Shown here in pieces: positions 9,130 to 64,000 of a stretch of DNA of 64,000 nt. Each line of letters opens with the position of its first letter. The stretch's first letter is position 1. This DNA comes from Planctomycetota bacterium (GTDB taxonomy: Bacteria > Planctomycetota > JAJSAM01 > JAJVHW01). The translations under genes were made by a program, and so were the position numbers. The stretch lies in contig JAJFFG010000096.1 of the NCBI GenBank assembly GCA_021776825.1, forward strand, positions 55,876 through 119,875, read 5' to 3'. The notes under the pieces are model-generated. The model searched no databases and had not been told where the DNA came from. It was given only the letters and a program-made list of their open reading frames with translations.

Positions 9130-9188
9130 GGCCCACCTCCACTCGATCTCACGAGCCTGCGCTCGCGACGCACGGACGACGCACGCTG

Positions 9189-43835: not shown

Positions 43836-46436
43836 TCAGAAGTCCCGAGCGATCGTGAACGACAGGACCTGCCTATCGTCGCCGTCCTGCTCCCGAATCG
43901 GGAAGCCCAAGTCGAGCGCGATGGGCTGTTGACCGAACGCGGGGATGCGGATGCGCAGGCCGACGCCGACCGACACACGCATGTCGTCGAGGAACGAGGG
44001 GCCGTCGTCGAACGTGAGCTGACGCCCGAGACGCCTCTGCCGCGTGTTGCCGGCGAGGAGGCGGCGACGCAGGCTGGCCACGTCGCTCTCCTCGAGTCCG
44101 TGCGAGCTGCCGAAGTCGTCGCGCACCATGCCCGCGTCGCAGAACACGACGCCCTTCAAGATCGTCTCGTAGAGCGGGAACTGGTACTCCGCCGAGGCGG
44201 TCAGGAGCACGTCACCGCCCATCGGGTCGCCGTCGTTGTCGAGAATCGAGCGCGCGGTCTCTCCAAGGCGCAACTGCTGACGGCCGAAGCGCTCGCGCGG
44301 CCGAGCGGCGAGCCGCGGGTCGCCCTCGCCGTGAGGGCCTGCGCCGCCGAACTCGAAGCCACGGATCGACGAGCTGCCGCCGGCGCGGTACCGCTCGTAG
44401 ATGGGTACGAAGTCCTCGTCCAGCAGGCTGGCCTCGGCGGACTCCGACGACGAGAGCTCCTGCGCGTAGGCCAAACGGCCTCCGATGGAGAGCACGTGCT
44501 CGCGCTCCTCCTCGTCGCGGTGCACCACCCAGAAGCGCCGGCCCTCGAGCTCGTTCTTCCAGAGGCGCACGTCACCGGCGAAGCCCACCTCGGTCGACGC
44601 TTCGGCGAACCAGCCGGTGCTTGGTTCGGCCGAGTTGTCCAGTCGGTCGACCCGCGCGTTCAGGCGCTGCGCGATCAGGCTGAGGTCGTCCTCGGCGAGG
44701 AACGCGTTGGGCGCCGTCTCGCGGTCGACGTTGTCGACCTCGTGCCGTTCGACCCGTGACGTCGTCGTGAGTCCCAGCACCGTGTCCTGCTTCTTGCCCT
44801 CGAACGTGAAGCGTCGACCGAGCGAGACGTTCACGCCACGCCGATCCACGTCGTAGTCGAAGCGCGAGAACTTCGAGAGAAACACGTCCCACCCGAACGA
44901 GATCGGCTTGTCGAAGAGCCACGGTTCGGTGAACGCGACGCGGTACGACGAGAGCTCGGAACCGGGTGCGAGCTCGATAGCGAGGGTCTGGCCCCCTCCC
45001 GAGAACGCGTCGCCGGAGAAGATCTCGCCGAAGCTCTCGGGGGTGTCGCGCCAGTCGAAGTTGCGCTTCGTGATCGTGATGCTGCCGATGAAGCCCAGGT
45101 CGCTGGACACGCCTGCGGCGAACCGCACCTGTCCCGTGCGCGCCGAGTCGTCGACCTGGAAGACGATGTCCTTCTCGTTGGGATCGCCTTCCGCGACGTC
45201 ATTCACCGTGTAGGCCACACGCTGGAAGTAGCGCAGCGACTGCAGGCGACGGACGCTCTTGTCGATCTCGTTCTGGTTCAGCACGCCGCCGGGGAACACG
45301 CTGACGTCACGCCGGATCACCTTGTCGCGCGTGATCGTGTTACCGAGGATGTCGAGCCGCCGGACGCGCACCTTCGACTGCTCCTCGATCGTGAAGACGA
45401 GGTCGACGACGTGCCCTTCGGCCGGCAGCTTGTCTACCTGGAGGACCAACGCCGCGAAGAAGCCCTCTTCGCGGTACGCACGTTCGAGCGCCGACACCGT
45501 GTCGCCGACACCCGCCTGACGACGCCGGTCTCCCGATTCGAGGCGAACGAGTTCGAGCAACGCGTCCACGCCGCCGGGGTAGCTGTCGGCGCCCTGGATG
45601 AAGACGTTCCCGACCGTGTAGGCGTTGCCCTCGGTGACGCCGATCCGCACCGTCACGTCGCCGCGATCGTCGCTGAAGTCGAGGTCCACGAGGTCGACGT
45701 TGGCATCGAGCCAGCCTTCCGACCGCAGGTAGTTGCGAAGCGTCAGGAGGTCGAGTCGGACCGTCTCCTCGACGAAGCTGCTCCCGCCGAGGCCGAGGAA
45801 GCCCGGCTCCCGCGTCGCCATGTGGTCCAGGAGGTCATCACGCGACACCGCATCGTTGCCTTCGAAGAGGATCTCGTCGACGTCGACCGACGGCCCCTCG
45901 AGGATCGTGAAGACGACGCGCTTGTCCTCGCCGACGTCCTCGACGCGCGAGTTGACCTCGACGAAGTGGTAGCCACGGTCGCGGAACAGGCGCGTGATCT
46001 TGCGCGCGTCGTTGTCGACACGGAACTGCGCGAGCGGCCGGCCCGATCGCGTCTCCATCACCGCCGTGACCTCCTTGCGTGAGAGCTGGTCGATCCCGTC
46101 GAGCCGCACTTCGCGAATGAGCGGGTTCTCGGTGACGACGAAGCGAAGGCGCAGGCCCGTGGCCGTCTGGGTCTCGTCGAGCTCGACGGTGTCGAAGAAA
46201 CCGTAGAGCGTGTTGATGTCCTCCTGCAGGAGCGCGCGATCGAGAATCTGCCCCTTCTTGGAGCGCAGCGCGAGACGCAGCGTGTCCTCGTCGTAGCGTC
46301 GGTTGCCGTCGAAGTCGAGCGCCTCGATCCTCACGCCGGCCTGGGCGTGGGCCTCGGAGACGAGGCCGGGCGCGGACCCGACGACACACGCCGCCAACGC
46401 GAGGCGGACCACGAGAGACTGCAGGAAACGCCGCAT
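43836..46436 (-). CDS. bamA: Outer membrane protein assembly factor BamA
   Basis: Signal peptide, POTRA repeats (ILGNTITRDKVIRR), FTEPWLFD, RYRAGGSSSIRGF, C-terminal …SFTIARDF. Confidence 0.95.
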   Translation of the reverse strand: MRRFLQSLVVRLALAACVVGSAPGLVSEAHAQAGVRIEALDFDGNRRYDEDTLRLALRSKKGQILDRALLQEDINTLYGFFDTVELDETQTATGLRLRFVVTENPLIREVRLDGIDQLSRKEVTAVMETRSGRPLAQFRVDNDARKITRLFRDRGYHFVEVNSRVEDVGEDKRVVFTILEGPSVDVDEILFEGNDAVSRDDLLDHMATREPGFLGLGGSSFVEETVRLDLLTLRNYLRSEGWLDANVDLVDLDFSDDRGDVTVRIGVTEGNAYTVGNVFIQGADSYPGGVDALLELVRLESGDRRRQAGVGDTVSALERAYREEGFFAALVLQVDKLPAEGHVVDLVFTIEEQSKVRVRRLDILGNTITRDKVIRRDVSVFPGGVLNQNEIDKSVRRLQSLRYFQRVAYTVNDVAEGDPNEKDIVFQVDDSARTGQVRFAAGVSSDLGFIGSITITKRNFDWRDTPESFGEIFSGDAFSGGGQTLAIELAPGSELSSYRVAFTEPWLFDKPISFGWDVFLSKFSRFDYDVDRRGVNVSLGRRFTFEGKKQDTVLGLTTTSRVERHEVDNVDRETAPNAFLAEDDLSLIAQRLNARVDRLDNSAEPSTGWFAEASTEVGFAGDVRLWKNELEGRRFWVVHRDEEEREHVLSIGGRLAYAQELSSSESAEASLLDEDFVPIYERYRAGGSSSIRGFEFGGAGPHGEGDPRLAARPRERFGRQQLRLGETARSILDNDGDPMGGDVLLTASAEYQFPLYETILKGVVFCDAGMVRDDFGSSHGLEESDVASLRRRLLAGNTRQRRLGRQLTFDDGPSFLDDMRVSVGVGLRIRIPAFGQQPIALDLGFPIREQDGDDRQVLSFTIARDF

Positions 46437-46565
46437 CGAGCACCCCTCCCAGGAGACGCGCACGGGGACGAAACGGCCTCGCGCGCGAGGGAGGCAAGAG
46501 TAGTTGCGGCCGCGGTCGGAGGCGAAGACGGATCGTCCGCACCAGAGAGTACATTTGCCCGTCCC

Positions 46566-47909
46566 ATGGACCGTGTGCCGCCCCACGACAGCGAGGCCGA
46601 GATTGCCGTTCTCGGCTCGATGCTCCTCGACCCGGATGCCGCCGGGCGCGTTGCGTCCATCCTGAAGGCGAGCGACTTCTACCGCGGCCCCCACGGCGAC
46701 GTTTTCGGCGTGCTCACGGCGATCTACGACGAGAACCGCGCCATCGACGTCGTGCTGCTCCGCGAGGAGCTGCAGCGGCTCTCGCTGCTCGACAAGATCG
46801 GCGGCAGCGCGTTCCTCTCGCGGATCGTCGCCGCCGTTCCGACCGCGGCGAACGCCGAGCACTACGCGCGCATCGTCAGGGAGTGCTCGCTGCGCCGAGC
46901 GGTGATCACGGCGTCGAACTCGATCGAGCGCGAGGCGTACGACGGCGGACTGCCCGGCCGCGAGCTGGTCGACTTCGCCGAGAGTCAGTTCTTCGAGCTG
47001 GATCGCAAGACCGAGGGCGGCGAAGCGCTCCACATCAAGGACATCCTGAACGAGACCTTCAAGCGCATCGACGCGATGCAGGGTCAGGCGGGCAGCGTCA
47101 CCGGCGTGCCCACCGGGTTCTACGACCTCGACGACATGACGTCGGGGCTGCAGCCCGGAGAGCTCATCGTCGTGGCGGCGCGACCGTCGATGGGCAAGAC
47201 CACGTTCTGCCTGAACGTCGCCGAGCACGCGGCCGTGGCGGAGAGTTCGCCGGTCGCGATCTTCAGCCTCGAGATGTCGAAGGACTCGCTCGTCCAGAAC
47301 ATGCTTTGCTCTCGCGCCCGGGTGGACTCGCACAAGCTCCGTCGCGGCTTCCTGCGCGACGAGGACTGGGGCCGGATCTCGCAGGCGCTCGGCAAGCTCG
47401 GTGAGGCACCGATCTTCATCGACGACACTCCCGGCCTCACGCCACTGCTGCTCCGCGCGAAAGCGCGACGCCTGAAGGCGCAGCACAACATCGGGATGAT
47501 CATCATCGACTACCTCCAGCTCATGGAGGTGCCCTCGCGCGGTCGCGGCGACGCAAACCGACAGGCCGAGATCTCGTACATCTCGCGCTCGATCAAGGGC
47601 CTCGCCCGCGAGCTCTCCGTTCCGATCGTCGCGCTGTCGCAGTTGAACCGCGGCGTGGACAGCCGCGAGGACCATCGCCCCCGCATGAGCGATCTCCGCG
47701 AGTCGGGCGCCATCGAGCAGGACGCCGATGTGATCATGTTCCTCTACCGGCCCGAGTACTACGAGATGGACCCCGACCGCCGCGCGGAGATCGCGGGTCA
47801 GTCCGAGCTGATCATCAGCAAGCAACGCAACGGGCCGACGGGCACGGTGAACCTGACATTCCTGGCGCAGTACATGCGGTTCGAGTCCGCAACCCGCGAT
47901 CGCTACTGA
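46566..47909 (+). CDS. dnaB: Replicative DNA helicase DnaB
   Basis: PPHDSEAEIAVLG, VPTAANAEHYA, AARPSMGKT, FSLEMS, IIDYLQL, LSQLNR, DLRESGAIEQDAD; no intein seen. Confidence 0.97.
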   Translation: MDRVPPHDSEAEIAVLGSMLLDPDAAGRVASILKASDFYRGPHGDVFGVLTAIYDENRAIDVVLLREELQRLSLLDKIGGSAFLSRIVAAVPTAANAEHYARIVRECSLRRAVITASNSIEREAYDGGLPGRELVDFAESQFFELDRKTEGGEALHIKDILNETFKRIDAMQGQAGSVTGVPTGFYDLDDMTSGLQPGELIVVAARPSMGKTTFCLNVAEHAAVAESSPVAIFSLEMSKDSLVQNMLCSRARVDSHKLRRGFLRDEDWGRISQALGKLGEAPIFIDDTPGLTPLLLRAKARRLKAQHNIGMIIIDYLQLMEVPSRGRGDANRQAEISYISRSIKGLARELSVPIVALSQLNRGVDSREDHRPRMSDLRESGAIEQDADVIMFLYRPEYYEMDPDRRAEIAGQSELIISKQRNGPTGTVNLTFLAQYMRFESATRDRY

Positions 47910-47912
47910 TGC

Positions 47913-48637
47913 GGGGGGTCACGTCGATTGCACGGCGGTGGATTGGTGGGCGCTGATCGGGGCATTCGGCAATCGCCGCGCCCTCGGTGCTGTCTGGCGT
48001 GTGCTCGGTCTCGTCACGCGTCAGACGAGAGCCACCGGCGCCGGTCGAGGACCTCCGCGCGCGCATCTCCCGCGTCACGGCGCCTGCGCTGACGCGCAAC
48101 CGCCGCGCCCCGGGCGAGGATCCGGACGGGTTGGGTCCCCTCCGATCCAACGGCTCCGCTTCGTCAACGGCACCGTAGGGGCGGACCCCCTGGTCCGCCC
48201 CGCCCGCTGGGGTGGCTCGCGCGGGGTGGGTTCGATGGCGCACCGCGAGCGACCCTCGACATGCGGACGGCCACCGGTCGATGACGGTGCTCCCGCTCGT
48301 TGCCGCCTTTCGCCGCGGGTGCACACCCGATCTCCGATGCACGCCACCTCAACCGGGTCGTACGGGCGGATCTCCTGATCCGCCCCGCCCGCTGGAGTTG
48401 CTCGCTCGATGTGGGTCCGATGGCGCACGGCGGACGACCGACGACCGACGTGATGCGGACGGCCATCGGACGACGGCGTCGCCCGCCGATGGTTCCCCCT
48501 CGGCGTCGGCGTCATCGACTCGCGACGTCAATCGCCCGTGGCCGCCCGATCTACCGGCGTCGTTCGCGAAGCGCCATCCCCCATCCCGGCCCGAGCCACG
48601 CGCGTCGGCGCGGGCGGATCAGAGGCTCCGCCCCTAC
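47913..48637. repeat. Composite REP/REPIN-like element: one ~195-bp unit plus three GTAG-type REP hairpins
   Basis: GTAGGGGCGGACCCCCTGGTCCGCCC (48175-48200), GTACGGGCGGATCTCCTGATCCGCCC (48360-48385), inverted GTAGGGGCGGAGCCTCTGATCCGCCC (48612-48637); 48061-48440 aligns to 56151-56530. Confidence 0.85.
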
Positions 48638-50118
48638 GGCGCCTCCGCGCCTCCCCCGCTCCACCGTGGCGGCGTCAACCGCCGCTTCCCGTCCGCCGTC
48701 CGCGGCACGTCGCCCTCGCCCTCGCCGAACTTCCGATCCCAGAGCTGGCACGTGACCTCGACGTGCTTCTGGTCGAGCGCTTCGCAGTAGTTCGTGTAGA
48801 CGCAACGACGCACTGCCCCACCGTGGCCGGCCCGCACCTTCTGCCACCAGTCCGGATCCGCGAGCGACTGGCGCGCCGCTGCGACGATGTCGGCGTGACC
48901 GTCCGCGAGGATCGACTCGGCGAGGTCGAACGTGCCGATGCCTCCCGCGGTAACGACCGGAACGTCGTGTCCGTCGGCCCGCACCGCCGTGCGGATCGCA
49001 GCCGAGAGTGGCACGTTCCGCCCAAACGGGCCGGGGCTGCCCGCGAACACCGTCGGCATGCACTCGTGACCGCTCGGACCCGTGTACGGGTACACGGCCT
49101 CGCCGACGCGTGGCTGCTTGGCATCCTCGAACTTCCCACCCTTCGAGACGGACAGGAAGTCCATCCCGGCCGCGGCGAAGCGGCGTGCATACGCGACCGC
49201 GTCGTCGATGCGCGATCCGCCCTCGATGACCTCGTCGCCGAGGAAGCGACAGCCGACGACAAACTCTGGAGAGACCGCCGATCGAACTCGATCGAACACC
49301 TCGAGCGGCAGACGGACGCGCGCGTCGGGACTGCCGCCGTAGCCGTCGTCGCGATCGTTCGTTCGCGAGAGGAACGAAGCCATCGTGTAGGCGTGCGCGT
49401 AGTGCAGTTCGACACCATCGAACCCGGCTGTCTCCGCCCGGCGCGCTGCGTCGCCGAACAGCGTGGGGAGCGTCGCGGGCAGGTCGCGCACATGCGCCAG
49501 ATCGACGTCCGTCACGCGTTCACGATGGCCGTGGGTCAGCGCCTGGCGCTCACGCTCGTCCAGCACACCGACGAGTTCGTCGTCCGACAGCCCGCAGAGT
49601 GCCTCACGAACGTCGTCATCCGGGCGCGATCGCCACGCCGGATCCGCATGATGACGCGCCAGCCCGTCGCGATGCCCGTCGCGCAGCGCGAGGTAGCGGC
49701 CGAAGTACTTCTCTCGCATGGGCCGACGTCGAACGGAGAGGAAGTCGATCAGCTGGATCAGCAGACGCGTGTTGCCACCGGAGCGACGCCGTACCTCGTC
49801 CACCAGGCGTCGCAGACCCGGCACGAAGCGATCGTCGCCGATCCGGAGGAGCGGCCCGCTGGGCACGTCGCGGATGCCGGTCGCCTCGACGACGAGAACA
49901 CCGGGCCGCCCGTCGGCGAAGCGGCCATACCAGTCCACGACGGCATCGGTCGCGAAGCCCTGTTCGGTGGCGCGCCACGGCACCATCGCGGGCACCCAGG
50001 TGCGCGAGGACGCCACGCAGCTCTGACCGATCCGCACGGGCGAGAACAGTCGAGAGGCCGCGGCCTCGTCAGAGGTCGGCCAGTGCGCATCCGGGAGCGG
50101 GTGGCGCGTGCGTGCCAA
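48634..50118 (-). CDS. NADH:flavin oxidoreductase / old yellow enzyme family
   Basis: LFSPVRIG, VVEATGI, AGFDGVELHYAHAY, RTNDRDDGYGGS…RVRLPLE, ADIVAAARQSLADPDW. Confidence 0.9.
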   Translation of the reverse strand: MARTRHPLPDAHWPTSDEAAASRLFSPVRIGQSCVASSRTWVPAMVPWRATEQGFATDAVVDWYGRFADGRPGVLVVEATGIRDVPSGPLLRIGDDRFVPGLRRLVDEVRRRSGGNTRLLIQLIDFLSVRRRPMREKYFGRYLALRDGHRDGLARHHADPAWRSRPDDDVREALCGLSDDELVGVLDERERQALTHGHRERVTDVDLAHVRDLPATLPTLFGDAARRAETAGFDGVELHYAHAYTMASFLSRTNDRDDGYGGSPDARVRLPLEVFDRVRSAVSPEFVVGCRFLGDEVIEGGSRIDDAVAYARRFAAAGMDFLSVSKGGKFEDAKQPRVGEAVYPYTGPSGHECMPTVFAGSPGPFGRNVPLSAAIRTAVRADGHDVPVVTAGGIGTFDLAESILADGHADIVAAARQSLADPDWWQKVRAGHGGAVRRCVYTNYCEALDQKHVEVTCQLWDRKFGEGEGDVPRTADGKRRLTPPRWSGGGAEAP

Positions 50119-52904: not shown

Positions 52905-53852
52905 CTAGACCGGGAACAGCTTCGAGACCGAGCGTCCCTGATGGATCCGTAGGATCGCGTCGCCGAGGAGGTCCCCGCACGACAGCACGGTCACTCCCGA
53001 CGGACTCGACTCCCGCAGCGGGATGCTGTCGGTCACGACGATCGAGTCGATCGGCGCAGCCTCCAGGCGCTCCTTCGCGGGACCACAGAACACAGCGTGC
53101 GTCGCCGCCACGTGCACTTCGCTGGCGCCGTTCTCGCGCAACGCGCGAGCGGCCTCGCTCATCGTGCCCGCGGTCGAGATCATGTCGTCCACGAGCAGGC
53201 AGCGCTTGCCGTCGACGTCGCCGATGATGTGCATCGCCTTGGCCATGTCGGACGACATGCGCCGCTTGTCGACGATGGCGAGCGAGAGGCCCAACAGCTT
53301 CGCGTAGGCACGTGCCTGCTTGATGCCACCCACGTCCGGCGCGACGACACAGCCGTCGTTGCCGAACATGCGGTTGCGCTGGAAGTGATCGAGGAAGACG
53401 CGCGAGCCGTAGAGGTGGTCGACCGGGATGTCGAAGAACCCCTGGATCTGCGCGGCGTGCAGGTCGAGGCAGACCACGCGGTCGACGCCCGAGCGCGTGA
53501 TGATGTTGGCGACCAGCTTGGCGCTGATCGGCACACGGCCCTCGTCCTTGCGATCCTTGCGGGCGTAACCGAAGTACGGGATCACCGCCGTGACGCGCGC
53601 GGCTGACGCACGCCGCAGCGTGTCGACCAGCAGCAGCAGCTCGATCAGGCTGTCGTTCACCGGCGGGCACGTCGGTTGGATCACGAACACGTCGCGGCCG
53701 CGCACGTCCTCGTTGATTTTCACGTCGATCTCGCCGTCGGGAAACGGAGTGATCGACACCTTCCCGACTGGGATCTCCAAGCGGCTGCAGACGCGCCGCG
53801 CGAGGTCCGGGTTGGCATTGCCCGTGAAGACCTGAAGCGGACCGACGATCAT
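52905..53852 (-). CDS. prs: Ribose-phosphate pyrophosphokinase
   Basis: FPDGEIDV, PYFGYARKDRK, DLHAAQIQGFF, VAPDVGG, LVDDMISTAGT, ATHAVF. Confidence 0.97.
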   Translation of the reverse strand: MIVGPLQVFTGNANPDLARRVCSRLEIPVGKVSITPFPDGEIDVKINEDVRGRDVFVIQPTCPPVNDSLIELLLLVDTLRRASAARVTAVIPYFGYARKDRKDEGRVPISAKLVANIITRSGVDRVVCLDLHAAQIQGFFDIPVDHLYGSRVFLDHFQRNRMFGNDGCVVAPDVGGIKQARAYAKLLGLSLAIVDKRRMSSDMAKAMHIIGDVDGKRCLLVDDMISTAGTMSEAARALRENGASEVHVAATHAVFCGPAKERLEAAPIDSIVVTDSIPLRESSPSGVTVLSCGDLLGDAILRIHQGRSVSKLFPV

Positions 53853-55159
53853 CGCTTCCCTCCCTTGCGCGTCGCCTTCACGGCAGCGTGCTTCTGCTTG
53901 CCGAGGCTCCTCGCGGGGACGCCGACCACGACGTCTCCGGGGGCCACGTCTCGTCCGGCCGTCACAACCGCACCGGCACCAGTAGTGGCACCGTCACCGA
54001 CGCGGACGGGTGCGACGAGCACCGTCCCGCTGCCGATGTGGACGTCGTTGCCGATCGTCGTGCGGTGCTTGTTCTTGCCGTCGTAGTTGGCCGTGATCGT
54101 TCCGCAGCCCACGTTCGTCCCCGCACCGATCTCGGTGTCACCGAGATACGTGAGGTGCTTGGCCTTCGTGCGCTCGCCGATGACGGCCTTCTTCGTCTCG
54201 ACGAAGTTCCCGACCTCGGCGCGGTTCTTCATGACCGTGCCCGGTCGCAGATGCGTGAACGGCCCGACCTCGCAGTCCTCGCCTACGACGACGTCCGGCT
54301 CGATCACCGTGCAGGGCAGGATGCGCGTGCCGCGACCGATCTGCGACCCCATCGCCACGAACGTGGTGGCGGGGTCCTGGATCTCCACGCCCGCCGCCAT
54401 CAGCTCCTCGAGGCGGCGCCAGCGCAACCGCGTGCCGGCCTCGGCGAGCTCGCTGAGATTGTTCACCCCGAGGACCTCGTCCTCGGTGCCGCAATCGACG
54501 GCGAGGACGCGCTTGCCACGGCGCAGGAGGATCTGCGGCACGTCCGTCACGTAGTACTCGCCCTGCGCGTTGTTCGATCGCACGGCACGGAGCGCCGAAC
54601 GCAGTTCGTCGGAGTCGAACGCGTAGAGTCCGGAGTTGATCTCGCGCACCGCGCGCTCCTCGTCGGAGCAGTCCTTCGCCTCGCGAACCCCGACGAAGTT
54701 CCCCTTCGCGTCGCGCAGCACGCGGCCGTACGCGCCGGCATCGTCTAGGACGACACTCAGGAGCGAGGCGGCCGAGCGGCCACGGTGATGGCGCTGGACC
54801 AGGGTGCGGAGCGTCTCGGTCCGCACGAGCGGCACGTCGCCGCTGAGGACGACCACGGTTCCGTCGAAGCCCTTCAGCCCGCTCAGACCGGCCTTCACGG
54901 CGTCAGCGGTGCCCTTCTGCTGCTTCTGCACCGCGAACGTGATGCCCGGAATCCCCGCAAGCGCCCTCTCGACCATCTCGCGGCCGTACCCGACGACCAC
55001 GACCACACGCTCCGGGCGCAGACCGCGCACGGCCTCCACCACGTGACGGACCATCGGCCAGCCACAGACCTCGAACGCCACCTTGGGACGCTCGCTCTTC
55101 ATGCGTGTGCCCTGTCCAGCGGCGAGAATCACCGCGGCCAGGGGCCGTCGTCGTGCCAT
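53849..55159 (-). CDS. glmU: Bifunctional UDP-GlcNAc pyrophosphorylase / GlcN-1-P acetyltransferase
   Basis: ILAAGQGTRMKS, GDVPL, YGRVLR, EINSGLY, NAQGEYYVTD, GNFVETK, HLTYLGD, NYDGKNKH. Confidence 0.96.
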   Translation of the reverse strand: MARRRPLAAVILAAGQGTRMKSERPKVAFEVCGWPMVRHVVEAVRGLRPERVVVVVGYGREMVERALAGIPGITFAVQKQQKGTADAVKAGLSGLKGFDGTVVVLSGDVPLVRTETLRTLVQRHHRGRSAASLLSVVLDDAGAYGRVLRDAKGNFVGVREAKDCSDEERAVREINSGLYAFDSDELRSALRAVRSNNAQGEYYVTDVPQILLRRGKRVLAVDCGTEDEVLGVNNLSELAEAGTRLRWRRLEELMAAGVEIQDPATTFVAMGSQIGRGTRILPCTVIEPDVVVGEDCEVGPFTHLRPGTVMKNRAEVGNFVETKKAVIGERTKAKHLTYLGDTEIGAGTNVGCGTITANYDGKNKHRTTIGNDVHIGSGTVLVAPVRVGDGATTGAGAVVTAGRDVAPGDVVVGVPARSLGKQKHAAVKATRKGGKR

Positions 55160-55394
55160 GGGTCAATCCCGTTCAGCCGGGCGGGGGCGCCGTCCGGCGG
55201 GCCGCCACTCAGGGGCCCGTATCTCACGTCATCGAACTCCGGTCGGGGGGCGGCCGGTTGGCCCGGATCACCTGGTCCGGGACCGCGGGAGCGGGGAGCC
55301 CCTGCGGAAGAGGGCGGAGCCTACCAAGCCACTCCGCGGCCCGCCTCATTTTCGGGGAGGCCGGAGGCTGCGGGGTACAGTCCCAGGCAGCGCC

Positions 55395-55465
55395 TCCCCG
55401 GTGGTGTAATGGCAACACAGTGGGTTTTGGTCCCTCTGATCCAGGTTCGAGTCCTGGCCGGGGAT
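55395..55465 (+). tRNA. tRNA-Gln (anticodon TTG)
   Basis: Acceptor TCCCCGG/CCGGGGA, D-arm GTGT/ACAC, anticodon loop TTTTGGT (TTG at 55427-55429), T-arm CCAGG-TTCGAGT-CCTGG; CCA not encoded. Confidence 0.93.
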
Positions 55466-56201
55466 CGCGTCACGGCGCTTGCGCTGACGCGCAACCGCCG
55501 CGCCGCGAACCCCGGCTCTCCTTTCTGGTCGGCTCCGCGGGTGCGAGGGCTCGGCGTCGAGAGCGTGGCCCCTCGGCCGCACCCTTGCGTGGCCTCACCA
55601 GGATCGCGTCACGGCGAGGGGTCACGTCGATTGCTAGCCGGTGGTTGGTGACGCCGACCGGGACATGCGGCAATCGCCGCGCCTCCCGTGTTCCCGGTCG
55701 GCTCCGCGGCTGCGTCACCTCGCACGCGAGCGCGGTGCCCATCGGTCGCAGCCTTGCGTGGCCTCATTCCCCGCGTCACGGCGCTTGCGCTGGCGCGCAA
55801 CCGCCGCGCCCCGGGGTCACGTCGATTGCTGGTTGTCCGTTGGTGACGCGATTCGAACGTGCGGCAATCGCCGCGCCTCCCGTGTTCCTGGTCGGCTCCG
55901 CGGCTGCGTCACCTCGCACGCGAGCGCGGTGCCCATCGGTCGCAGCCTTGCGTGGCCTCATCTCCCGCGTCACGCTGCTTGCGCTCGGGCGCAACCAGCG
56001 CGCCCCGGGGTCACGTCGACTGCTAGCCGGTGGTTGGTGACGCCGACCGGGACATGCGGCAATCGCCGCGCCTCCCGTGTTCCTGGTCGGCTCCGCGGCT
56101 GCGTCACCTCGCACGCGAGCGCGGTGCCCGTCGGTCGCAGCCTTGCGTGGCCTCATCTCCCGCGTCACGCTGCTTGCGCTCGGGCGCAACCAGCGCGCCC
56201 C
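55466..56201 (+). repeat. Tandem array of ~195-bp units (three full units plus a diverged partial) directly downstream of tRNA-Gln
   Basis: GGGGTCACGTCGA unit starts at 55618, 55813, 56007 (periods 195, 194); near-identical bodies. Confidence 0.92.
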
Positions 56202-56560
56202 GGGCGCGGATCCGGACGGGTTGGGTCTCCTCCGATCCAGCGGGTCCGCTTCGTCAATGGCGCCGTAGGGGCGGACCCCCTGGTCCGCCCCGCCCGTTGG
56301 GGTCATCCGCGCCAGGCGGGTCCACTGGCGCACCGCGGACGACCCTCGTGGTGCGGACGGCCCTCGGTCGATGACCTCGCTCCCGCTTCTTGGCGCATCC
56401 GACCGCTGGTGCGGGTCCGATCCTCGGGCCGCGCCACCTCAATCGGGTCGTACGGGCGGATCTCCTGATCCGCCCCGCCCGCTGGGGTCACGCGCTCATC
56501 TGGGGTCCGATGGCGCTCAGCGATCGAACCTCGTGATCCGGACGGCGAGCGGTCCATAGG
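56151..56560 (+). repeat. Second copy of the GTAG-REP doublet element
   Basis: REPs at 56265-56290 and 56450-56475 identical to 48175-48200 and 48360-48385, same 185-bp spacing. Confidence 0.88.
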
Positions 56561-56630
56561 CTTGCCGCCGGTCACCCACGTCGGGGCTGCCGTTGGACGC
56601 CGACGACCGATCCCCGCGGCCCGCGCGCCC

Positions 56631-57869
56631 CTACCCGCCCAGGTGCCGCCGGACCAGATCCAGCGCGCACTTCGTCGCCAGCTCTCTCACCAGCGCGCGA
56701 TCGCCGGGGAGCAGCAGCCGACGATGCGTCGTGTGCCCCTCGGCGGCAAGGGCGAGGTGCGCCAGACCGACCGGCTTCTCCTCCGTCCCGCCGTCCGGTC
56801 CCGCAATCCCGGTGATGCCGATGCCGAGGTCGGTGGCGAACCGCTCGCGGACGCCATCTGCCAGCGCCCGCGCGACCTCTTCACTCACCGCGCCATGCTC
56901 TTCGATCAGCGCCGCCGGCACCCCGGCCAGCCGCGTCTTCTCCTCGTTCGCGTACGCGACGACACTCCCCGGGAAGATCGCGCTCACGCCGGGCTGCGAC
57001 GTCAACGCCGCCGCGACCAGTCCCCCAGTGCAACTCTCCGCCGTCGAGATCGTCGTGCCGGACCTCACCAGAGCCGCTGCGACGACCTCGGGGAGCGTCT
57101 GCCCGTCCACACCGAAGACGTGTCGTCCCAGGCGCCCCTGTACCTCGGCGACGGCGGCATCGAGGAGCGCATCGACCGCGGCGGCGTCTCCCTCGGCGTG
57201 CAGGATCACTCGGATCACGCCGCGCGCCGCCGTGGTCCCGATGCGCGGACGCGCGTCGCGCGCCATCAGCTCTCCGAGCAGTTCGCCCACCCGGGCTTCG
57301 CGTTCGCCGAACGTCTCGAGGCTCCGCGTGCGCACGACGCGCGTCGTCTCGCCCCGCAGTGCTCGAATGCGAGGCAGCACCTCGTCCGCGAGCACCCCGC
57401 GCATCTCCCGAGGTGGCCCCGGGAGCGCCAACAAGCGCGCCTCCCCGACCCGGACCTCGAAGCCCGGGGCGGTGCCGTACGCGTTCGGAACGATCTCGGC
57501 GCCCTCCGGAAGATCCGCCTGCAAGAGGTTGCTCACTGGCATGTCCTGGCCGCGCCGCGCCCAACGCTCCTCCAGCCAGCGAACCAGTTCCGGTGACCGG
57601 ACGACCCTCGTCCCAGCAGCGCGGGCCGCAGCCACGCGCGTGCAGTCGTCCTCCGTCGGACCGAGGCCACCTGACATGACCACCACGTCCGCCACGGACG
57701 CCGCGCGGAGGATCGCCTCGGCCAGGGCGTCCGGGTCATCGCCGACCACCGCGATGCTGACCACAGTCAGTCCCTCGGCGCTCAGAGCCCGGGCGATCTC
57801 TGCCGCGTTGCGATCCTGCGTCCGTCCCCGGACCAACTCGTCACCCGTCGAGAGGATCGCGGCTCGCAT
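56631..57869 (-). CDS. cinA: CinA-family protein (molybdopterin-binding-like domain + NMN deamidase PncC)
   Basis: STGDELVRG, VGDD, SGGLGPTEDDCT, GTAPG, LPGPPREM, TAESCTGG, TGIAGPDGG…KPVG. Confidence 0.95.
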   Translation of the reverse strand: MRAAILSTGDELVRGRTQDRNAAEIARALSAEGLTVVSIAVVGDDPDALAEAILRAASVADVVVMSGGLGPTEDDCTRVAAARAAGTRVVRSPELVRWLEERWARRGQDMPVSNLLQADLPEGAEIVPNAYGTAPGFEVRVGEARLLALPGPPREMRGVLADEVLPRIRALRGETTRVVRTRSLETFGEREARVGELLGELMARDARPRIGTTAARGVIRVILHAEGDAAAVDALLDAAVAEVQGRLGRHVFGVDGQTLPEVVAAALVRSGTTISTAESCTGGLVAAALTSQPGVSAIFPGSVVAYANEEKTRLAGVPAALIEEHGAVSEEVARALADGVRERFATDLGIGITGIAGPDGGTEEKPVGLAHLALAAEGHTTHRRLLLPGDRALVRELATKCALDLVRRHLGG

Positions 57870-57873
57870 GGCG

Positions 57874-58929
57874 TCAGACCGAGAATCTCACGTTGACGAT
57901 GTCGCCGTCCTGCACGACGTACTCGCGGCCCTCGACGCGGAAGCGCCCGGCCTTCTTCACGCCGGCGAGATCGCCGTCGACGCCGCGGAAGTCGTCGTAC
58001 GAATAGACCTCTGCCCGAATGAACCCGCGCTGCAGATCGGTGTGGATCTTGCCCGCTGCCTCCACGGCCGGACAGCCGGTGGGGATCTCCCACGCGCGCA
58101 CCTCGTCCTCGCCCGTGGTGAAGAACGAGATCGTGCCGCACGCGCGGAACGCGGCGGCGACGACCGACTCGCTGGCGAGGCTCTCGATCCCGAGATCCTC
58201 CATGAACTCGGTGCGATCGTCGTCGTCGAGTTCAGCGATCTCGGCCTCCAGTTTCGCCCGCACCGCGAGGCGCGCCTCGAAGTCGCCCGCAACGCCGGCC
58301 ACGTCCGGTCCGCCCTCGTCCGGCAGCGACAGAACCAACGCGATCGGCTTCTCCGTCAGGAAGCGGAATCCGCGCAGCAGCTTCTGTTCGCCGGAATTGA
58401 GACTGACCGTCTTGACCGCCCGACCGTCCTCGAGCGCTTCGCGCACTCGGTGGAGCGCCTTCAGCTCCTGCTTCTCGATGTCGATCGCGTTGCCGCCCTT
58501 GCGCTCGAGTTTCTCGATGCGTCGCATCGCGATCTCGAGGTCGGCGAACACGAGCTCGGTGAGCACGTTCTCGGCGTCGGCGGCGGGATCCGGCGTGGCG
58601 ACGCGGTACGGGTACGTCGGGTCCTCGAACCCGCGTGCGCAGATGATCAGGCCGTCGGCCTCGCGCGCCGCAGCCAGGAGCTCGCTCAGCTTGGCACCGT
58701 CGATCTCGCCGGGCTCCGGCAGGCCGGGGAAGTCGCAGACCTCGATCGCGACCGGCGTGTACTTCTTCGGCTGGTGGTGATCCCGCAGCCACTCCAGCCG
58801 CTCGTCGCGGACGCGCACGACCGCGATGGCCGGCTGATTGGGACGCGGCGGTATCGGTTCATCTCCGGTGAACGCGCGGAAGAGCGTGCTCTTCCCAGCG
58901 CCTCGGGAACCCACGATCGCAAGCCTCAT
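57874..58929 (-). CDS. ychF: YchF/OLA1-family P-loop ATPase (divergent paralog)
   Basis: GSRGAGKSTLF, VRDERL, DFPGL, FLTEKP, FFTTGEDEVRAW, AGKIHTDLQRGFIRAEV, EGREYVVQDGD. Confidence 0.88.
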   Translation of the reverse strand: MRLAIVGSRGAGKSTLFRAFTGDEPIPPRPNQPAIAVVRVRDERLEWLRDHHQPKKYTPVAIEVCDFPGLPEPGEIDGAKLSELLAAAREADGLIICARGFEDPTYPYRVATPDPAADAENVLTELVFADLEIAMRRIEKLERKGGNAIDIEKQELKALHRVREALEDGRAVKTVSLNSGEQKLLRGFRFLTEKPIALVLSLPDEGGPDVAGVAGDFEARLAVRAKLEAEIAELDDDDRTEFMEDLGIESLASESVVAAAFRACGTISFFTTGEDEVRAWEIPTGCPAVEAAGKIHTDLQRGFIRAEVYSYDDFRGVDGDLAGVKKAGRFRVEGREYVVQDGDIVNVRFSV

Positions 58930-59873
58930 CCCGTCTCCTTCTCCCGCCGGCCGCCCATTAGGCGGCACAGCACGATCCCCACTTCGAACAGCAAGATGAT
59001 CGGCACCATGGTCATCGCCAGCGTGACCGCGTCGCCGGTCGGCGTCAGGAACGCCGCGCCGATGACGCTGCCGACGATGAAGTGCCGCCGGAACGCCACG
59101 AACGTCCGCCACTCCGCGATGCCCATGAGCTGCGCGATCACCATGAGAAGCGGCAGCTGGAAGATCAGCCCGTTGATCAGGAGCATCCCGAGGAACAGGT
59201 TGAACCACTCCCCGATGTCCGGCATCACCTTGACGATGACGTCGGACGCCCCGGTCGCTGCCACCTCAACGGTCGCTGCCACCTCAACGGTCGCACCGGC
59301 CGTCCCGGTCGCGATGGCCGTCCCGGTCTCGACCTTCTCCTCGAGACCGAGCAGCGAGGCTCCCGTGCCGTACCCAACGAAGAAGCGCAGCATCACGGGC
59401 TGAACGACGAAGTAGAAGAAGCTGCCTCCGGCGACGAACAGGAGGTACGAGAACGGCGCGAACACGCGGACGTACTTCTTCTCCCGCGCATACAGGCCGG
59501 CGGCCACGAACTTCCAGAGCTGCCAGATCACCATCGGTCCGGTCAGGAAGAGCCCGAACACAATCGACGCCTTCAGAGCGGTGAAGAACACCGTGGGCAG
59601 GCCGGTGGCGATGAGTTCGCCATCGCCCTCGGCGATCGCCTCTCTCACCGGCGCTGCGATGATCTCGAGCAGCTCGCGATCGAACGCCAGGCAGACGCCG
59701 GTCCCGACCGCCAGCCAGAGCGTCGCGAAGATCAGACGCTTCCGCAGTTCCTCAAGGTGCTGCCCGAGGCTCATCGGCTGGTCGTCGGGAGGGCCGTCGT
59801 CGTCGATCGCCGGTCCTTGTTCGTCGGTCACAGGTCCGTCTTCGTCCGCCACAGGTCCATCTGGGTCCGCCAC
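58926..59873 (-). CDS. tatC: Sec-independent translocase TatC
   Basis: MSLGQHLEELRKRL, WKFVAAGLYAREK, FQLP, RRHFIV, AFLTPTGD, LFEVGI; exact start uncertain. Confidence 0.93.
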   Translation of the reverse strand: MADPDGPVADEDGPVTDEQGPAIDDDGPPDDQPMSLGQHLEELRKRLIFATLWLAVGTGVCLAFDRELLEIIAAPVREAIAEGDGELIATGLPTVFFTALKASIVFGLFLTGPMVIWQLWKFVAAGLYAREKKYVRVFAPFSYLLFVAGGSFFYFVVQPVMLRFFVGYGTGASLLGLEEKVETGTAIATGTAGATVEVAATVEVAATGASDVIVKVMPDIGEWFNLFLGMLLINGLIFQLPLLMVIAQLMGIAEWRTFVAFRRHFIVGSVIGAAFLTPTGDAVTLAMTMVPIILLFEVGIVLCRLMGGRREKETG

Positions 59874-59945
59874 AGGTCCATCGGAACGCGAAGCGGGCCG
59901 TGCGTCCAGAGACGCACGGCCCGCAGGGGGTTGTTCGTGAGCGGC

Positions 59946-62467: not shown

Positions 62468-64000
62468 GACCCACGAGGGCGAGCCCGAGAAGAAGCCGGC
62501 ACGCAAGCCGCGCAAGACGACCCGTCGTCGCAAGGCGCCAGCGAAAGAGGCGCCGCCGACCGACGAGTTCGGCGCCGACCTCGGCCTCGATGTCGCACCG
62601 AAGTCCAGGGCGCGGGCGAAGGCCGAGCCGGAGGCGGCAGCGCCGTCGTCGAGCTCTGAGCGCTCTGAGCGTTCCGAGCGTTCCGAGCGGTCCGAGCGGT
62701 CCGAGCGCTCCGAGTCGCGCGACACGGTCGACGCGGGAGACGGCGGCGCGAGGGGCGATAGCGACGCGAGTTCCGACGCGAGCCTCGGTCCCGGAGAGTC
62801 TGCAGAGGAGGCGCGTCGCCTTCGCGGTCGACGCGGCCGACGCGGTCGACGCCCGCGCCGAGGCAGCCCGGAGTTCGAGATCTTCGACGTCGAGAACGAG
62901 GACTGGAGCGACTACGAACCCGACTCGGGTCGTCCGTCGACGAACATCTGGGAGTTGCAGATGCTTCCGATGGCCGAAGTCCACAAGCTCGCCATCGAGG
63001 ACGGGCTGACGGACTTCGCCGGGGTGAAGAAGCAGGAGCTCATCTTCCGCATCCTCCGCCACAAGATCGCGCAGCGCGACCTGGTCTACGGCGAAGGCGT
63101 GCTCGAGGTGCTGCCCGACGGGTTCGGGTTCCTGCGCTCACCCTGGTACAGCTTCATCGCGGCGCCCGATGACATCTACGTCTCGCCCTCGCAGATCCGC
63201 CGCTTCAACCTGAGCACCGGACAGCAGATCAAGGGCCCCATCCGCCCGCCGAAGGCGAACGAGCGCTACTTCGCGCTGCTCCGCGTGGACGAAGTCGACG
63301 GGCACAAGTCCGATGACCTACCGACGCGCGTCGTGTTCGACGACCTGACGCCCCTCTACCCCGAGGCGCGGCTGATCATGGAGAACGGTGCCGGTAGCAC
63401 GGAGATGCGCGTGATGGACATCATCACGCCCATCGGCAAGGGCCAGCGCGGCCTCATCGTCTCGCCGCCGCGTGCCGGCAAGACCATGATCCTCCAGAAG
63501 ATCGCGGAGTCGATCGCGACGAACCACCCCGAATGCCACCTCATCGTCCTGCTCATCGACGAGCGGCCCGAGGAGGTCACGGACATGCGGCGGAGCGTGA
63601 AGGGCGAGGTGATCTCGTCGACGTTCGACGAGCCGGCGTCGCGTCACGTGCAGGTGGCCGAAATGGTCATCCAGCGTGCACGCCGACTCGTCGAGTACGG
63701 CAAGGACGTCGTGATCCTGCTCGACTCGATCACGCGACTCGCACGCGCCTACAACACCGAGGTCCCCCACTCCGGGAAGATCCTCTCTGGCGGTGTCGAC
63801 GCGAACGCGCTGCAGCGCCCGAAGCGCTTCTTCGGCGCCGCGCGCAACTGCGAGGAGGGTGGCTCGCTCACCATCCTCGGCACCGCACTCGTCGAGACGG
63901 GCTCGCGCATGGACGAGGTCATCTACGAGGAGTTCAAGGGCACCGGCAACATGGAGCTGCACCTCGAGCGCAAGCTCGCGGACAAGCGCATCTTCCCGGC
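62451..64000 (+). CDS. rho: Transcription termination factor Rho with long N-terminal insertion; truncated by the window end
   Basis: GGAGGA RBS; [81 protein letters not shown]. Confidence 0.97.
62655..62714 (+). repeat. In-frame 9-bp tandem repeat encoding (SER)n in the Rho N-terminal region
   Basis: TC(T/C)GAGCGN x6 plus partial. Confidence 0.9.

Follow-up and report, generated by a model that had tools for sequence, protein, structure and literature searches.

The segment 55467-56557 of the window, by which we mean the whole 64,000-nt stretch of DNA that was analysed, is with a probability of roughly 0.7 one locus of a lineage-specific, non-coding mosaic repeat family of the REP/BIME type in an uncultured planctomycete, i.e. 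hairpin DNA, selfish or nearly neutral, that builds up at the 3' ends of genes. REP/BIME-type repeats are abundant and their spread and function are still debated; this family shows clearly that the reiterated piece can be a long unit of 195 bp with three hairpins and not a single REP. In several copies of the family, including the one next to the tRNA-Gln gene of the window, the DNA that follows the hairpin is complementary to the native end of the adjoining gene.

The repeat mosaic at the tRNA-Gln locus

The tRNA-Gln(UUG) gene, the three tandem units of ~195 bp and the two GTAG/GTAC hairpins 185 bp apart, all named in a preliminary description of this DNA, are present in the sequence, as are the inverted pair CGATTGC/GCAATCG of the units and its CGACTGC variant in the third unit. 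Its proposal of a composite element that ends in GTAG/GTAC REPs and within which the units are reiterated was borne out, and the related copy that it had placed after dnaB proved to be a mosaic with one unit and REPs. The features of both loci are as follows.

46347-47909, + strand: ORF encoding DnaB (Pfam DnaB_C, 368 bits)
47917-48641, + strand: second mosaic of the same family, H1-H2b-H3-L-R-X-R-X-X'-R', 8 nt after the dnaB stop (module HMMs)
55395-55466, + strand: tRNA-Gln, anticodon TTG (UUG) (ARAGORN; Rfam RF00005, 57.9 bits)
55458-55468, + strand: arm X, native flank CCGGGGATCGC, comprising the tRNA acceptor 3' strand, the discriminator and 3 nt; pairs with arm X' (sequence, fold)
55469-55504, + strand: alpha hairpin in the short-loop (H3) form, GTCACGGCGCTTGC GCTGACGC GCAACCGCCGCGCC (module HMM H3, 44 bits; fold)
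55505-55515, + strand: arm X', GCGAACCCCGG, reverse complement of arm X with one mismatch (sequence, fold)
55516-55528, + strand: T-rich stretch CTCTCCTTTCTGG directly 3' of arm X'
55522-55597, + strand: central hairpin module H2a, diverged copy (repeat search; module HMM, 54.9 bits)
55601-55617, + strand: second junction copy GGATCGC+GTCACGGCG, truncated, joined to unit 1 via AGGG (repeat search)
55618-55812, + strand: full A unit 1, with H1 alpha hairpin 55620-55684, H2a 55689-55767 and H3 alpha hairpin 55770-55811 (TRF; module HMMs)
55813-56006, + strand: full A unit 2, with H1 55815-55878, H2a 55883-55961 and H3 55964-56005 (TRF; module HMMs)
56007-56204, + strand: full A unit 3, with H1 56009-56073, H2a 56078-56156 and H3 56159-56200 (TRF; module HMMs)
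56209-56260, + strand: linker module L (module HMM)
56261-56300, + strand: REP module R1, GTAG (56265-56268) followed by the hairpin GGGGCGGACC CCCT GGTCCGCCCC (sequence, HMM, fold)
56302-56377, + strand: REP extension module X (module HMM)
56447-56485, + strand: REP module R2, GTAC (56450-56453) followed by the hairpin GGGCGGATC TCCT GATCCGCCC (sequence, HMM)
56487-56557, + strand: REP extension module X, second copy, end of the mosaic (module HMM)

The CCA end is not encoded by the tRNA-Gln gene, whose acceptor 3' strand CCGGGGA occupies 55458-55464, and the stop of cinA (assigned by Pfam) lies at 56631, beyond the end of the mosaic. Between the tRNA and unit 1 the preliminary description had placed a partial unit. 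Such a piece does exist, and it is really a short-loop alpha hairpin (55469-55504) followed by H2a (55522-55597) and a truncated hairpin start (55601-55616). This H2a copy carries GGGTGCG...CGCACCC, which is compensatory with respect to GGCTGCG...CGCAGCC of the full units. The truncated start is a 16-nt exact repeat of 55462-55477 at a spacing of 139, and the truncated junction TCACGGCG-NGGG-[H1] is found again at other loci. The R hairpins follow GTAG/GTAC with the consensus GGGCGGAYC...GRTCCGCCCC, and the first of them in the window folds at -32 kcal/mol (z -3.7).

Tandem Repeats Finder reported a period of 195 at 55618-56204 with 3.0 copies (91% matches, score 1013), and a further repeat search placed the starts of the unit copies at 55618, 55812 and 56007. 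Unit 2 is 89% identical to unit 1 and differs in its H1 loop, and unit 3 is 94% identical to unit 1 and has an H3 module identical to that of unit 2. A degree of local duplication or conversion is suggested by the likeness of units 1 and 3 and by the 3' module, which is identical in units 2 and 3. The local amplification proposed earlier is thus upheld in part: adjacent units are more alike (82%) than units of different loci (75%) and the window copies resemble each other, whereas of 65 units in multi-unit arrays only 18 are most closely related to a unit of their own array. Units would have been gained or reshuffled via unequal recombination or template switching among the many identical hairpin arms, and recent local copying may account for units 1 and 3 and for the H3 module common to units 2 and 3.

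As the source genome is a 133-contig MAG (6.9-Mb assembly) with many contigs ending within these repeats, array lengths are uncertain; families of dispersed repeats such as these break assemblies. These contig ends, along with an independent Logan contig that breaks inside the second REP hairpin, could suggest that the three-unit array is an artefact of short-read assembly. We regard this as most improbable. The three window units are mutually 79-94% identical and differ in a mosaic pattern, which makes a simple collapse or expansion unlikely, and arrays of 2-4 units occur at 65 other places. Moreover, the Logan contig is identical over the right edge up to the loop of the second REP hairpin, where it breaks. 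Searching for contigs by the two flanking genes returned one identical Logan contig from one gene and none from the other. The unit as a coding sequence (195 = 65 codons) was also rejected, since the spacing is 194/195, indels separate the copies and the long ORFs across the array are as expected of 69% GC sequence on any strand.

Copy number, module order and distribution of the family

The genome-wide count of the unit, a check named in the preliminary description, gave ~238 copies in ~148 arrays of 1-5 units (82 matches by BLAST and 238 by nhmmer across the assembly). Single units account for 82 of the 148 arrays, followed by 46 double and 17 triple arrays, two of four units and one of five, and multi-unit arrays (2-5 units) are common (66/148). 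The units are linked with a family of GTAG/GTAC REPs that numbers about 380 hairpins (378 R modules). The grammar (H1 H2 H3)n L (R X)m (X' R'), in which X stands for the REP extension, was drawn from 1,411 module matches and holds across 247 loci. H1-H2-H3 constitutes the 195-bp unit, which is reiterated head to tail and usually closes in L-R-X. The commonest architectures are R X and R, followed in third place by R X X' R', a REPIN-like inverted pair. At the window locus every module is in direct orientation, in the order 3 a 1a3 1a3 1a3 L R X R X, and alternating orientation is seen at other loci only.

Both outer hairpins of the unit are forms of the alpha hairpin, which has fixed imperfect arms (GTCACGnCGnTTGC / GCAAnCGCCGCGCC) and is called H1 with a long loop and H3 with a short loop. 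Its conserved core is GTCACGnCG...AAnCGCCGCGCC, its arms are 14 nt long with fixed T-C and A-C mismatches, its loops span 8-35 nt and it lacks the GTAG tag. The central hairpin H2 has two sequence forms, with 102 and 47 copies, that can replace each other. The REP block comprises the linker and GTAG/GTAC-tagged hairpins with a 75-nt extension; the linker L is restricted to the junction from A array to REP (104 copies genome-wide), and extension X is present in 298 copies genome-wide. Matches to a loose hairpin regex with one mismatch per arm were mostly due to chance and were dropped. In the covariation test, which had likewise been named earlier as a check, the two H2 forms were found to differ at many positions while keeping the stem, with pair changes at 86:147 (GC/TA/CG) and 97:134 (GC/TA); this covariation is mostly between the two subfamilies and so reflects few events.

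In the tyrT operon of E. coli, tRNA-Tyr is followed by about three 178-bp repeats that are unique to the tyrT locus. The window locus is similar in that a tRNA is followed directly by about three long tandem repeats, and a piece of the tRNA-end junction is repeated once (55462-55477, 55601-55616). By this analogy the tRNA-Gln promoter would read through the units and each ~195-nt unit would be processed to a structured small RNA. The units are co-oriented with the tRNA and begin at its 3' end, their hairpins are strong and partly covarying, and G-U-type pairs on the given strand (88:145 TG, 93:139 GT) fit its folding. Unlike the tyrT repeats, however, the unit is dispersed over ~148 places, nearly all of them away from tRNAs, and tRNA-end bases are carried only by the one 16-nt junction repeat instead of by each unit. 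A special link to tRNA genes did not survive, as a module lies just downstream of 3 of 60 tRNAs where about 3 are expected by chance. Arrays in tandem-gene contexts show no strand polarity (26 co-oriented vs 20 anti-oriented). The Rfam 15 scan of 54000-58000 at E<=1 returned the tRNA only, no promoter-like site was found in the scan and the canonical terminator scan of 55100-56800 (GC-rich stem-loop, then >=5 T in 8 nt) gave 0 sites. As the covariation also reflects few events and the unit family is absent from relatives, an RNA device of this kind is very unlikely. Caution is needed in annotation, since 'tandem repeats after tRNA genes' in a MAG can belong to dispersed families.

The full unit was absent from ~400 other Planctomycetota genomes. 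This genome has 104 occurrences of the alpha motif, as against 19 in a single genome of a sister genus and 0-1 in the others; the sister genus shares one module, which is present in one of its two genomes and absent from the rest of the family. An exact scan of genome contigs for a conserved 24-mer of the unit gave only two chance matches in Streptomyces. This absence from ~400 genomes, with one module shared by the sister genus, marks the family as a lineage-specific REP/BIME-like mosaic. The metagenome scan with CinA for near strains gave best matches of 35-46% identity, and thus the collections searched contained no close relative for a comparison of filled and empty sites; neither a transposition event nor an empty site was seen in them.

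Hairpins at gene ends and the flank-matching arm

The loci are enriched between convergent genes, with 63 in convergent, 69 in tandem and 8 in divergent contexts against a background of 682, 1,864 and 700, counts that are approximate because the gene calls come from a crude GC3-based ORF filter covering 77% of the genome. Overlap with a called gene by >60 nt was limited to 12 of the 148 A arrays. Of the 95 H1 hairpins that stand first in an array, 48 are preceded by a coding stop no more than 12 nt away and 16 abut it exactly, and TAG makes up 77% of those stops (37/48) vs 39% genome-wide. The alpha hairpin often begins 0-3 nt from the native stop codon (mostly TAG) or tRNA 3' end, and in such copies the 4-12 nt 3' of alpha are the reverse complement of the native 5' flank. 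At tRNA-Gln, arms X and X' pair at 9 of 10 flank positions, and the RNA fold of 55456-55532 reaches -48.7 kcal/mol (z -4.9; 0 of 200 shuffles fold as well). A second tRNA-Gln gene shows the arrangement AACCA[alpha]TGGTT.

Perfect 4-nt complements were present in 18 of 192 H1 copies, as compared to 1.9 in shuffles (maximum 7 in 1,000). When 29 copies were picked solely for a stop within 3 nt, the flank helix was 84% paired, with double changes at all three pairs and a covariation score of 0.138 vs 0.042 that 0 of 500 shuffles reached. The flank-matched class is a minority, comprising ~23 of the 31 copies listed with a stop within 3 nt of the hairpin, and most H1 copies carry only the family's own short GGG/TCCC foot. 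The matches extend over 11 nt at tRNA-Gln, 12 nt at a locus on contig C42 and 7-12 nt in the sister genus, each being unique to one locus.

The flanks themselves are native. The acceptor strand of a tRNA is native by definition, hence so is the flank at tRNA-Gln. An EF-G-like gene next to an alpha hairpin has the same last residue as the orthologues from two genomes of the family, and stops 1-2 residues short of the end of two others; the gene end shared with orthologues indicates that this flank is native as well. At the tRNA-Gln loci of five family genomes the downstream DNA is unrelated. The idea that a terminator already stood at the tRNA and was invaded afterwards finds no support in these five genomes, none of which has a stem overlapping the acceptor; such a terminator could still have been present in this lineage.

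In quasipalindrome template switching (Ripley model), an imperfect inverted repeat is made more perfect in one templated event, from which a flank-complementary arm of several bases would result. At tRNA-Gln, the alpha hairpin may have come to abut the tRNA 3' end directly, after which the segment 3' of the hairpin would have become the complement of this native flank. Intrastrand template switching, with quasipalindrome-type copying at the folded hairpin, would be the likeliest way, and the copying may have lengthened the stem across the tRNA acceptor 3' strand. We infer that arm X' is such a copy, and the flank-matching arm would then be a record of the making of the junction. If copied from the flank, it would offer a natural read-out of hairpin template switching or a pointer to new insertion chemistry, and would account for elements landing exactly at stop codons. 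Unlike this repeat family, Ripley-type switching is a general mutational process and not an element. Taken alone, generic template switching leaves both the abutment of hairpins on stop codons and the preference for TAG unexplained.

More tentatively, the alpha hairpin might be the core of an undescribed hairpin element anchored to the last nucleotides of a gene, be it a stop codon or a tRNA 3' end, whose insertion or repair step copies the native 5' flank into an inverted complement on the 3' side; we consider this rather unlikely. A dedicated reaction, either hairpin-primed fold-back synthesis or a foot-pairing Y1 HUH enzyme, and not generic slippage, could be responsible in that case. The gene end would become part of the stem of the element, which would give mobile DNA a new route to choose safe sites and build terminator-like structures. 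We did not find a gene-specific, flank-complementary arm 3' of a repeat hairpin described in the papers on REP elements that were consulted.

The position at gene ends could also mean that alpha, the flank-matched stem and the T-rich tail serve the host as a terminator or 3'-end stabiliser, whose spread and stem repair would be kept by selection. For half of the hairpins that open an array a stop codon is no more than 12 nt away, TTGTTTCTGG-type T-rich sequence follows the stem and the loci are enriched between convergent genes. The same layout recurs at the sister-genus loci, where stems have 7-17 pairs and some enclose the stop codon, and E. coli REPs have been reported to work as 3'-UTR elements. 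Against this, no site passes the canonical terminator scan, the T tract is weak (4 T in 8 after alpha stems) and a stem after the tRNA would compete with the acceptor helix. The patchy distribution, with one of two sister-genus genomes and no other genome of the family, agrees better with a mobile element than with a conserved host signal, and host use is on the whole doubtful.

The match between element and flank could instead arise from guide-target pairing of the IS200/IS605 type (Y1 HUH), in which a guide at the hairpin foot selects the site. In IS200/IS605 and RAYT systems a foot tetranucleotide pairs at the cleavage site (PMC3479197), and Y1 genes are present in this genome. The CTAG and TCCC classes have several copies with mutual similarities of 0.79 and 0.83 vs 0.74, and the unit 3' end ...CCGGG would be a target for a TCCC/TCCG foot, which would explain the precise head-to-tail arrays. 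The CTAC and CTCA classes, in contrast, are not above average similarity, many copies (e.g. those with a CTCG foot) mismatch their own flank, and the matches extend over 5-12 nt that are unique to single loci, the fifth flank position being complementary in 10 of 16 cases among the listed copies. Such guide pairing is therefore quite unlikely as the origin of the arm.

Relation to known repeats and mobile elements

The GTAG-tagged REP superfamily was described by Di Nocera et al. 2013, and GTAG REPs are already known in Planctomycetes (PMC3733652). The R module is an imperfect palindrome with a 5' GTAG/GTAC, and the family resembles the REP/REPIN/BIME systems with RAYT (TnpA_REP) of E. coli, Pseudomonas and Stenotrophomonas in the tag 5' of a GC-rich imperfect hairpin, the hundreds of extragenic copies (378 R modules), the inverted pairs (R X X' R') and a RAYT-like gene beside REPs. 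As in BIMEs, which are also known for binding IHF, gyrase or Pol I, the REPs are combined with further conserved motifs into mosaics of regular grammar, are reiterated in tandem together with flanking DNA, and lie at the 3' ends of genes, in some cases touching the stop codon or providing it. The family differs in that the reiterated piece is the three-hairpin unit in direct orientation and not alternating REPs, a feature of BIMEs that the all-direct window locus lacks. The alpha hairpin, untagged and with 14-nt mismatched arms, is a further difference, as is the arm 3' of it that is complementary to unique native flank DNA.

REPs within palindromes have been reported as A. variabilis GTAG-15, T. 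roseum GTAG-23 and H. neapolitanus CGTC-1, where the palindromes fit the family consensus (PMC3733652). The alpha copies are similar in having mutually complementary sequence on both sides of a hairpin. Here, however, each locus has another gene whose end (stop codon or tRNA 3' end) forms the left arm, and the right arm changes with it. The CGTC-tagged REPs have an 8-9 bp stem starting with A-T pairs, a 4-5 nt loop and a CCA tail (Di Nocera 2013, PMC3733652), whereas alpha has longer arms, loops that span 8-35 nt and no CCA tail, although the H3 sequence GCGTCACG contains CGTC. The ends of IS200/IS605 elements carry a guide tetranucleotide at the hairpin foot (PMC3479197), and the family resembles these and their MITE-like derivatives in an imperfect hairpin that would be recognised on one strand, in foot pairing nearby, in a site choice that favours TAG and in Y1 HUH genes. 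In contrast to IS200/IS605, no transposase gene lies between such ends, and the pairing is of the Watson-Crick type, 4-12 nt long and locus-specific.

A 344-aa Y1-HTH gene on contig C78 (238800-239831) was rejected as mobiliser of the unit, as it has no modules within 5 kb and its own, different inverted repeats. The REP doublet of the window belongs to a GTAG family that is probably mobilised by a RAYT-type Y1 (HUH) transposase. The candidate gene is a RAYT-like ORF on contig C61 (45952-46500, - strand), which matched NF047646 with 61 bits (cut-off 80, E 1e-16) and Pfam Y1_Tnp with 22 bits (cut-off 23) and has an HLH motif and YIEDNP. None of the R/X modules lies 5' of this ORF, and they are found directly 3' of it.

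Anatomy and module grammar of the repeat family

The mosaic beside the tRNA-Gln gene belongs, as an ordinary member, to a mosaic family that is REP/BIME-like and lineage-specific. The tRNA-Gln gene, the 195-bp units and the two REP hairpins 185 bp apart of the preliminary description were all found in the window, as was the related mosaic after dnaB at 47917-48641. The features of the region are as follows.

46347-47909: dnaB
47917-48641: second mosaic, starting 8 nt past the dnaB stop
53849-55159, minus strand: flanking gene for a GlmU-like nucleotidyl/acetyl-transferase
55395-55466: tRNA-Gln(UUG)
55618-56204: tandem array, period 195 bp, 3.0 copies, 91% matches (Tandem Repeats Finder)
56631-57869, minus strand: flanking gene cinA

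As both flanking genes are on the minus strand, the mosaic is bordered by the tRNA on one side and by the 3' end of a convergently oriented gene on the other. A repeat search of the window placed the unit starts at 55618, 55812 and 56007 and detected partial unit copies in the gap between the tRNA and the first full unit, while downstream of the array a GTAG hairpin at 56265 and a GTAC hairpin at 56450 are spaced by 185 bp. An independent short-read Logan contig (SRR15505515_138799, L090) includes a ychF-like gene and a cinA gene that are the same as in the window, and ends in the second REP hairpin loop, so these repeats break short-read assemblies. Other short-period tandem repeats identified by Tandem Repeats Finder in the window, at 15448-15637 (30/57 bp), 37416-37508 (21 bp), 59790-59882 (21 bp) and 62653-62714 (9 bp), probably lie inside coding sequence.

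A genome-wide count of the unit, proposed in the preliminary description, was made on the whole assembly, a MAG of 6.88 Mb in 133 contigs with 69% GC, in which the window corresponds to C129:55876-119875. BLAST with one unit yielded 82 strong matches and iterated nhmmer 238 unit copies, of which 151-157 were full-length depending on the end filter, with a mean pairwise identity of 76% among full units. The copies fall into 148 arrays on one strand (82 with one unit, 46 with two, 17 with three, 2 with four and 1 with five), these lengths being lower bounds because many contigs terminate within repeats; the sole five-unit array is the window locus with its three full and two partial units. The REP-bearing part was more numerous than the unit (418 nhmmer matches). 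Comparison of single copies with their flanks revealed a sharp left edge at GGGGTCACG, and rightward of single units conservation runs on into the REP part. The family was divided into seven modules, which were then mapped to 1,411 matches at 247 loci.

Modules of the repeat family and number of matches
H1: long-loop alpha hairpin, 212
H2a / H2b: central hairpin in two sequence forms, 164 / 63
H3: short-loop alpha hairpin, 192
L: linker, 104
R: GTAG/GTAC hairpin, 378
X: REP extension, 298

The most frequent architectures at these loci were R X, R alone and R X X' R' (primes denoting inverted copies), the last of which is an inverted, REPIN-like pair, and the units are arranged as (H1 H2 H3)n L R X, plus longer forms. 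In the same notation the window locus reads 3 a 1a3 1a3 1a3 L R X R X and the dnaB locus 1 b 3 L R X R X X' R'. The arms GTCACGnCGnTTGC / GCAAnCGCCGCGCC, in which T-C and A-C mismatches are fixed, are common to H1 and H3. H2a and H2b are separated by many linked differences with the long stem kept in both, and the variation is structure-preserving, though derived from few independent events.

Hairpin arms complementary to native gene-end flanks

The complementarity of this REP/BIME-like family to native flanks at gene ends is unusual and statistically solid, and merits follow-up. The first H1 hairpin of an array is preceded by 4-5 nt (here the arm X, distinct from the REP extension) whose reverse complement makes up the 4-5 nt that come next to it on the other side (X'), and X is very often the stop codon of the upstream gene; inner units carry the family's own GGG/TCCC foot.

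Flank pairs, X and X'
CTAG, CTAG
GTAG, CTAC
GTAA, TTAC
TGAG, CTCA
TTAG, CTAA
AGTA, TACT
TAGCG, CGCTA
TGACG, CGTCA

Perfect 4-nt complements were found in 18 of 192 copies as compared to 1.9 in shuffles (maximum 7 in 1,000). A coding stop ends within 12 nt upstream of 48 of the 95 array-first hairpins, with exact abutment in 16, and these stops were TAG in 37 cases, TGA in 10 and TAA in 1, against genome-wide shares of 39%, 56% and 4.5%, respectively. Covariation was assessed on every non-duplicate copy that has a stop at most 3 nt away (29 copies), irrespective of pairing: the three flank pairs were 84% paired, with both-side changes in all three, and the score of 0.138 (0.042 when shuffled) was reached by 0 of 500 shuffles, slid controls giving 0.006-0.039. 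As the left arms are unique DNA of unrelated genes, shared ancestry cannot yield this pairing signal.

The flank before the hairpin is native. The product of an EF-G-like gene on contig C11 has the C-terminus ...ARHDDD*; the TAG of this gene touches the hairpin, and X' reads CTAAT. The orthologues in the related genomes G001 and G002 stop at that very residue, and those in G005 and G003 run on for one and two residues, respectively. At the window locus X (CCGGGGATCGC) contains the acceptor 3' strand of tRNA-Gln and is complementary to X' (GCGAACCCCGG) at 10 of 11 positions, the X-alpha-X' stem folding at -48.7 kcal/mol (z -4.9); the tRNA-Gln loci of five family genomes have unrelated trailers and no such stem. 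The second tRNA-Gln gene (CUG; C78:7771-7844, minus strand) likewise runs straight into an alpha hairpin that has diverged, CGCACGGCAGGTGC..GCACCTGTCGCGCC, its arm changes being compensatory. The end of this tRNA, AACCA, pairs with TGGTT past the hairpin, and the 130 nt downstream of the gene also take in a T-rich tail and H2a. At C42:83380 (plus strand) a 12-nt arm pair, AGGCACGGGTGC / GCGCCCTTGCCT, surrounds the hairpin in the same layout as in the window (short-loop alpha, H2, full unit), and this alpha is 100% identical to H3 of window unit 1 (55773-55810).

The sister-genus genome G007 has its own mosaic family on the alpha hairpin (loci L171-L189, such as C354:13940-13978 and C246:12660-12700), which was absent from its congener G006. 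It differs from that of the source genome in a longer, canonical 12-nt foot, GGAGCGGCGATC / GATCGCCGCTCC, and in the downstream module, TTACGTTGGCGCGTGCTCGGGCGCGGACAG... Where the left arm is a gene end with TGA, the right arm tracks it, as in CTGAGCGCGATC/GATCGCGCTCAG, GCTGAGC/GCTCAGC and GCTGACC/GGTCAGC.

Origin of the paired flanks and of the arrays

We favour intrastrand template switching, of the type seen in quasipalindrome mutagenesis, as the route by which the flank would have been copied at the folded hairpin; such a process can alter several bases per event. Alternatively, the pairing could be due solely to an IS200/IS605-like, inherited 4-nt guide (PMC3479197). Copies of one X' type are at most weakly more alike than average (mutual similarity 0.79 for CTAG, 0.75 for CTAC and 0.67 for CTCA vs 0.74 overall) and flank matches of 5-12 nt are each unique to one locus, both of which argue against such a guide as the sole cause. 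Template switching, however, leaves the abutment of hairpin and stop and the preference for TAG unexplained, and one possibility is that a putative mobilising enzyme prefers (N)TAG|G sites, related to the REP GTAG tag. GTAG REP termini often provide TAG stops and some REPs sit within palindromes (Di Nocera et al., PMC3733652), but those palindromes follow the family consensus whereas the arms of the planctomycete family are locus-specific. As a secondary effect the hairpins may serve the host by terminating transcription or stabilising 3' ends, a role to which neither a canonical terminator scan nor the patchy distribution lent support.

The window units had been read as a locally amplified part of a REP-bearing composite element, which holds in part: units 1 and 3 are 94% alike and units 2 and 3 have an identical H3 module (the H1 loop of unit 2 differs), but only 18 of the 65 units of multi-unit arrays have their closest relative in their own array. 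Identity was 82% between adjacent units as compared to 75% between loci. The 16-nt junction GGATCGC+GTCACGGCG, which includes tRNA-end bases, recurs truncated 139 bp downstream. This truncated junction, TCACGGCG-NGGG, in which only the first 9 nt of a hairpin are left and are fused to a new unit, precedes a full H1 at 55601-55617 of the window and at C11:68211, C54:11636, C46:13266, C131:22679 and C78:18326, a pattern suggestive of template switching at the GTCACGnCG arm common to the hairpins. Array breakpoints are located in shared hairpin arms. The identity pattern, shared modules and junctions indicate that the arrays are a mix of local duplication or conversion and inter-locus exchange.

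Genomic context, distribution and associated enzymes

Gene contexts derived from a crude ORF filter were convergent for 63 loci, tandem for 69 and divergent for 8, against a background of 682, 1,864 and 700, and unit arrays between tandem genes were co-oriented in 26 cases and anti-oriented in 20. Modules just 3' of a tRNA in the same orientation were found at 3 of 60 tRNAs (both tRNA-Gln genes and tRNA-Ser(GCU)), with ~3 expected from the occupied fraction of intergenic regions. The full unit was absent from 40 relatives and from 400 genomes sampled across the phylum, and no close strain was found in the collections searched. The alpha motif was counted 104 times in the source genome and 19 times in G007 (same family, different genus), with one recognisable in the related genome G023 and 0-1 elsewhere, G006 included. 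Two Y1 (HUH) genes match the NCBIfam REP-associated tyrosine transposase model below its cut-off, and in the Y1 gene on C61 (183 aa) the stop is followed immediately by R and X modules. Copy number, grammar, context, distribution and enzymes together appear to form the signature of REP/BIME-type selfish repeats.

A gene encoding a 344-aa Y1 (HUH) transposase-like protein with a C-terminal HTH (C78:238800-239831, minus strand, L040; NF047646, 75 bits), was considered and no link to the 195-bp family was found. Its product is similar to the 'TIRYT' class of Di Nocera 2013. The gene occurs in 15 of 17 related genomes and is multi-copy here: C17, C24, C107, C91 and C84 carry paralogues or fragments at their ends, as does C40 at 8877-9821, and several copies lie at contig ends or have stop codons. 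An inverted repeat of its own, TACCGAGCCAGGCTC / GAGCCTGGCTCGGTA, borders the C78 copy.
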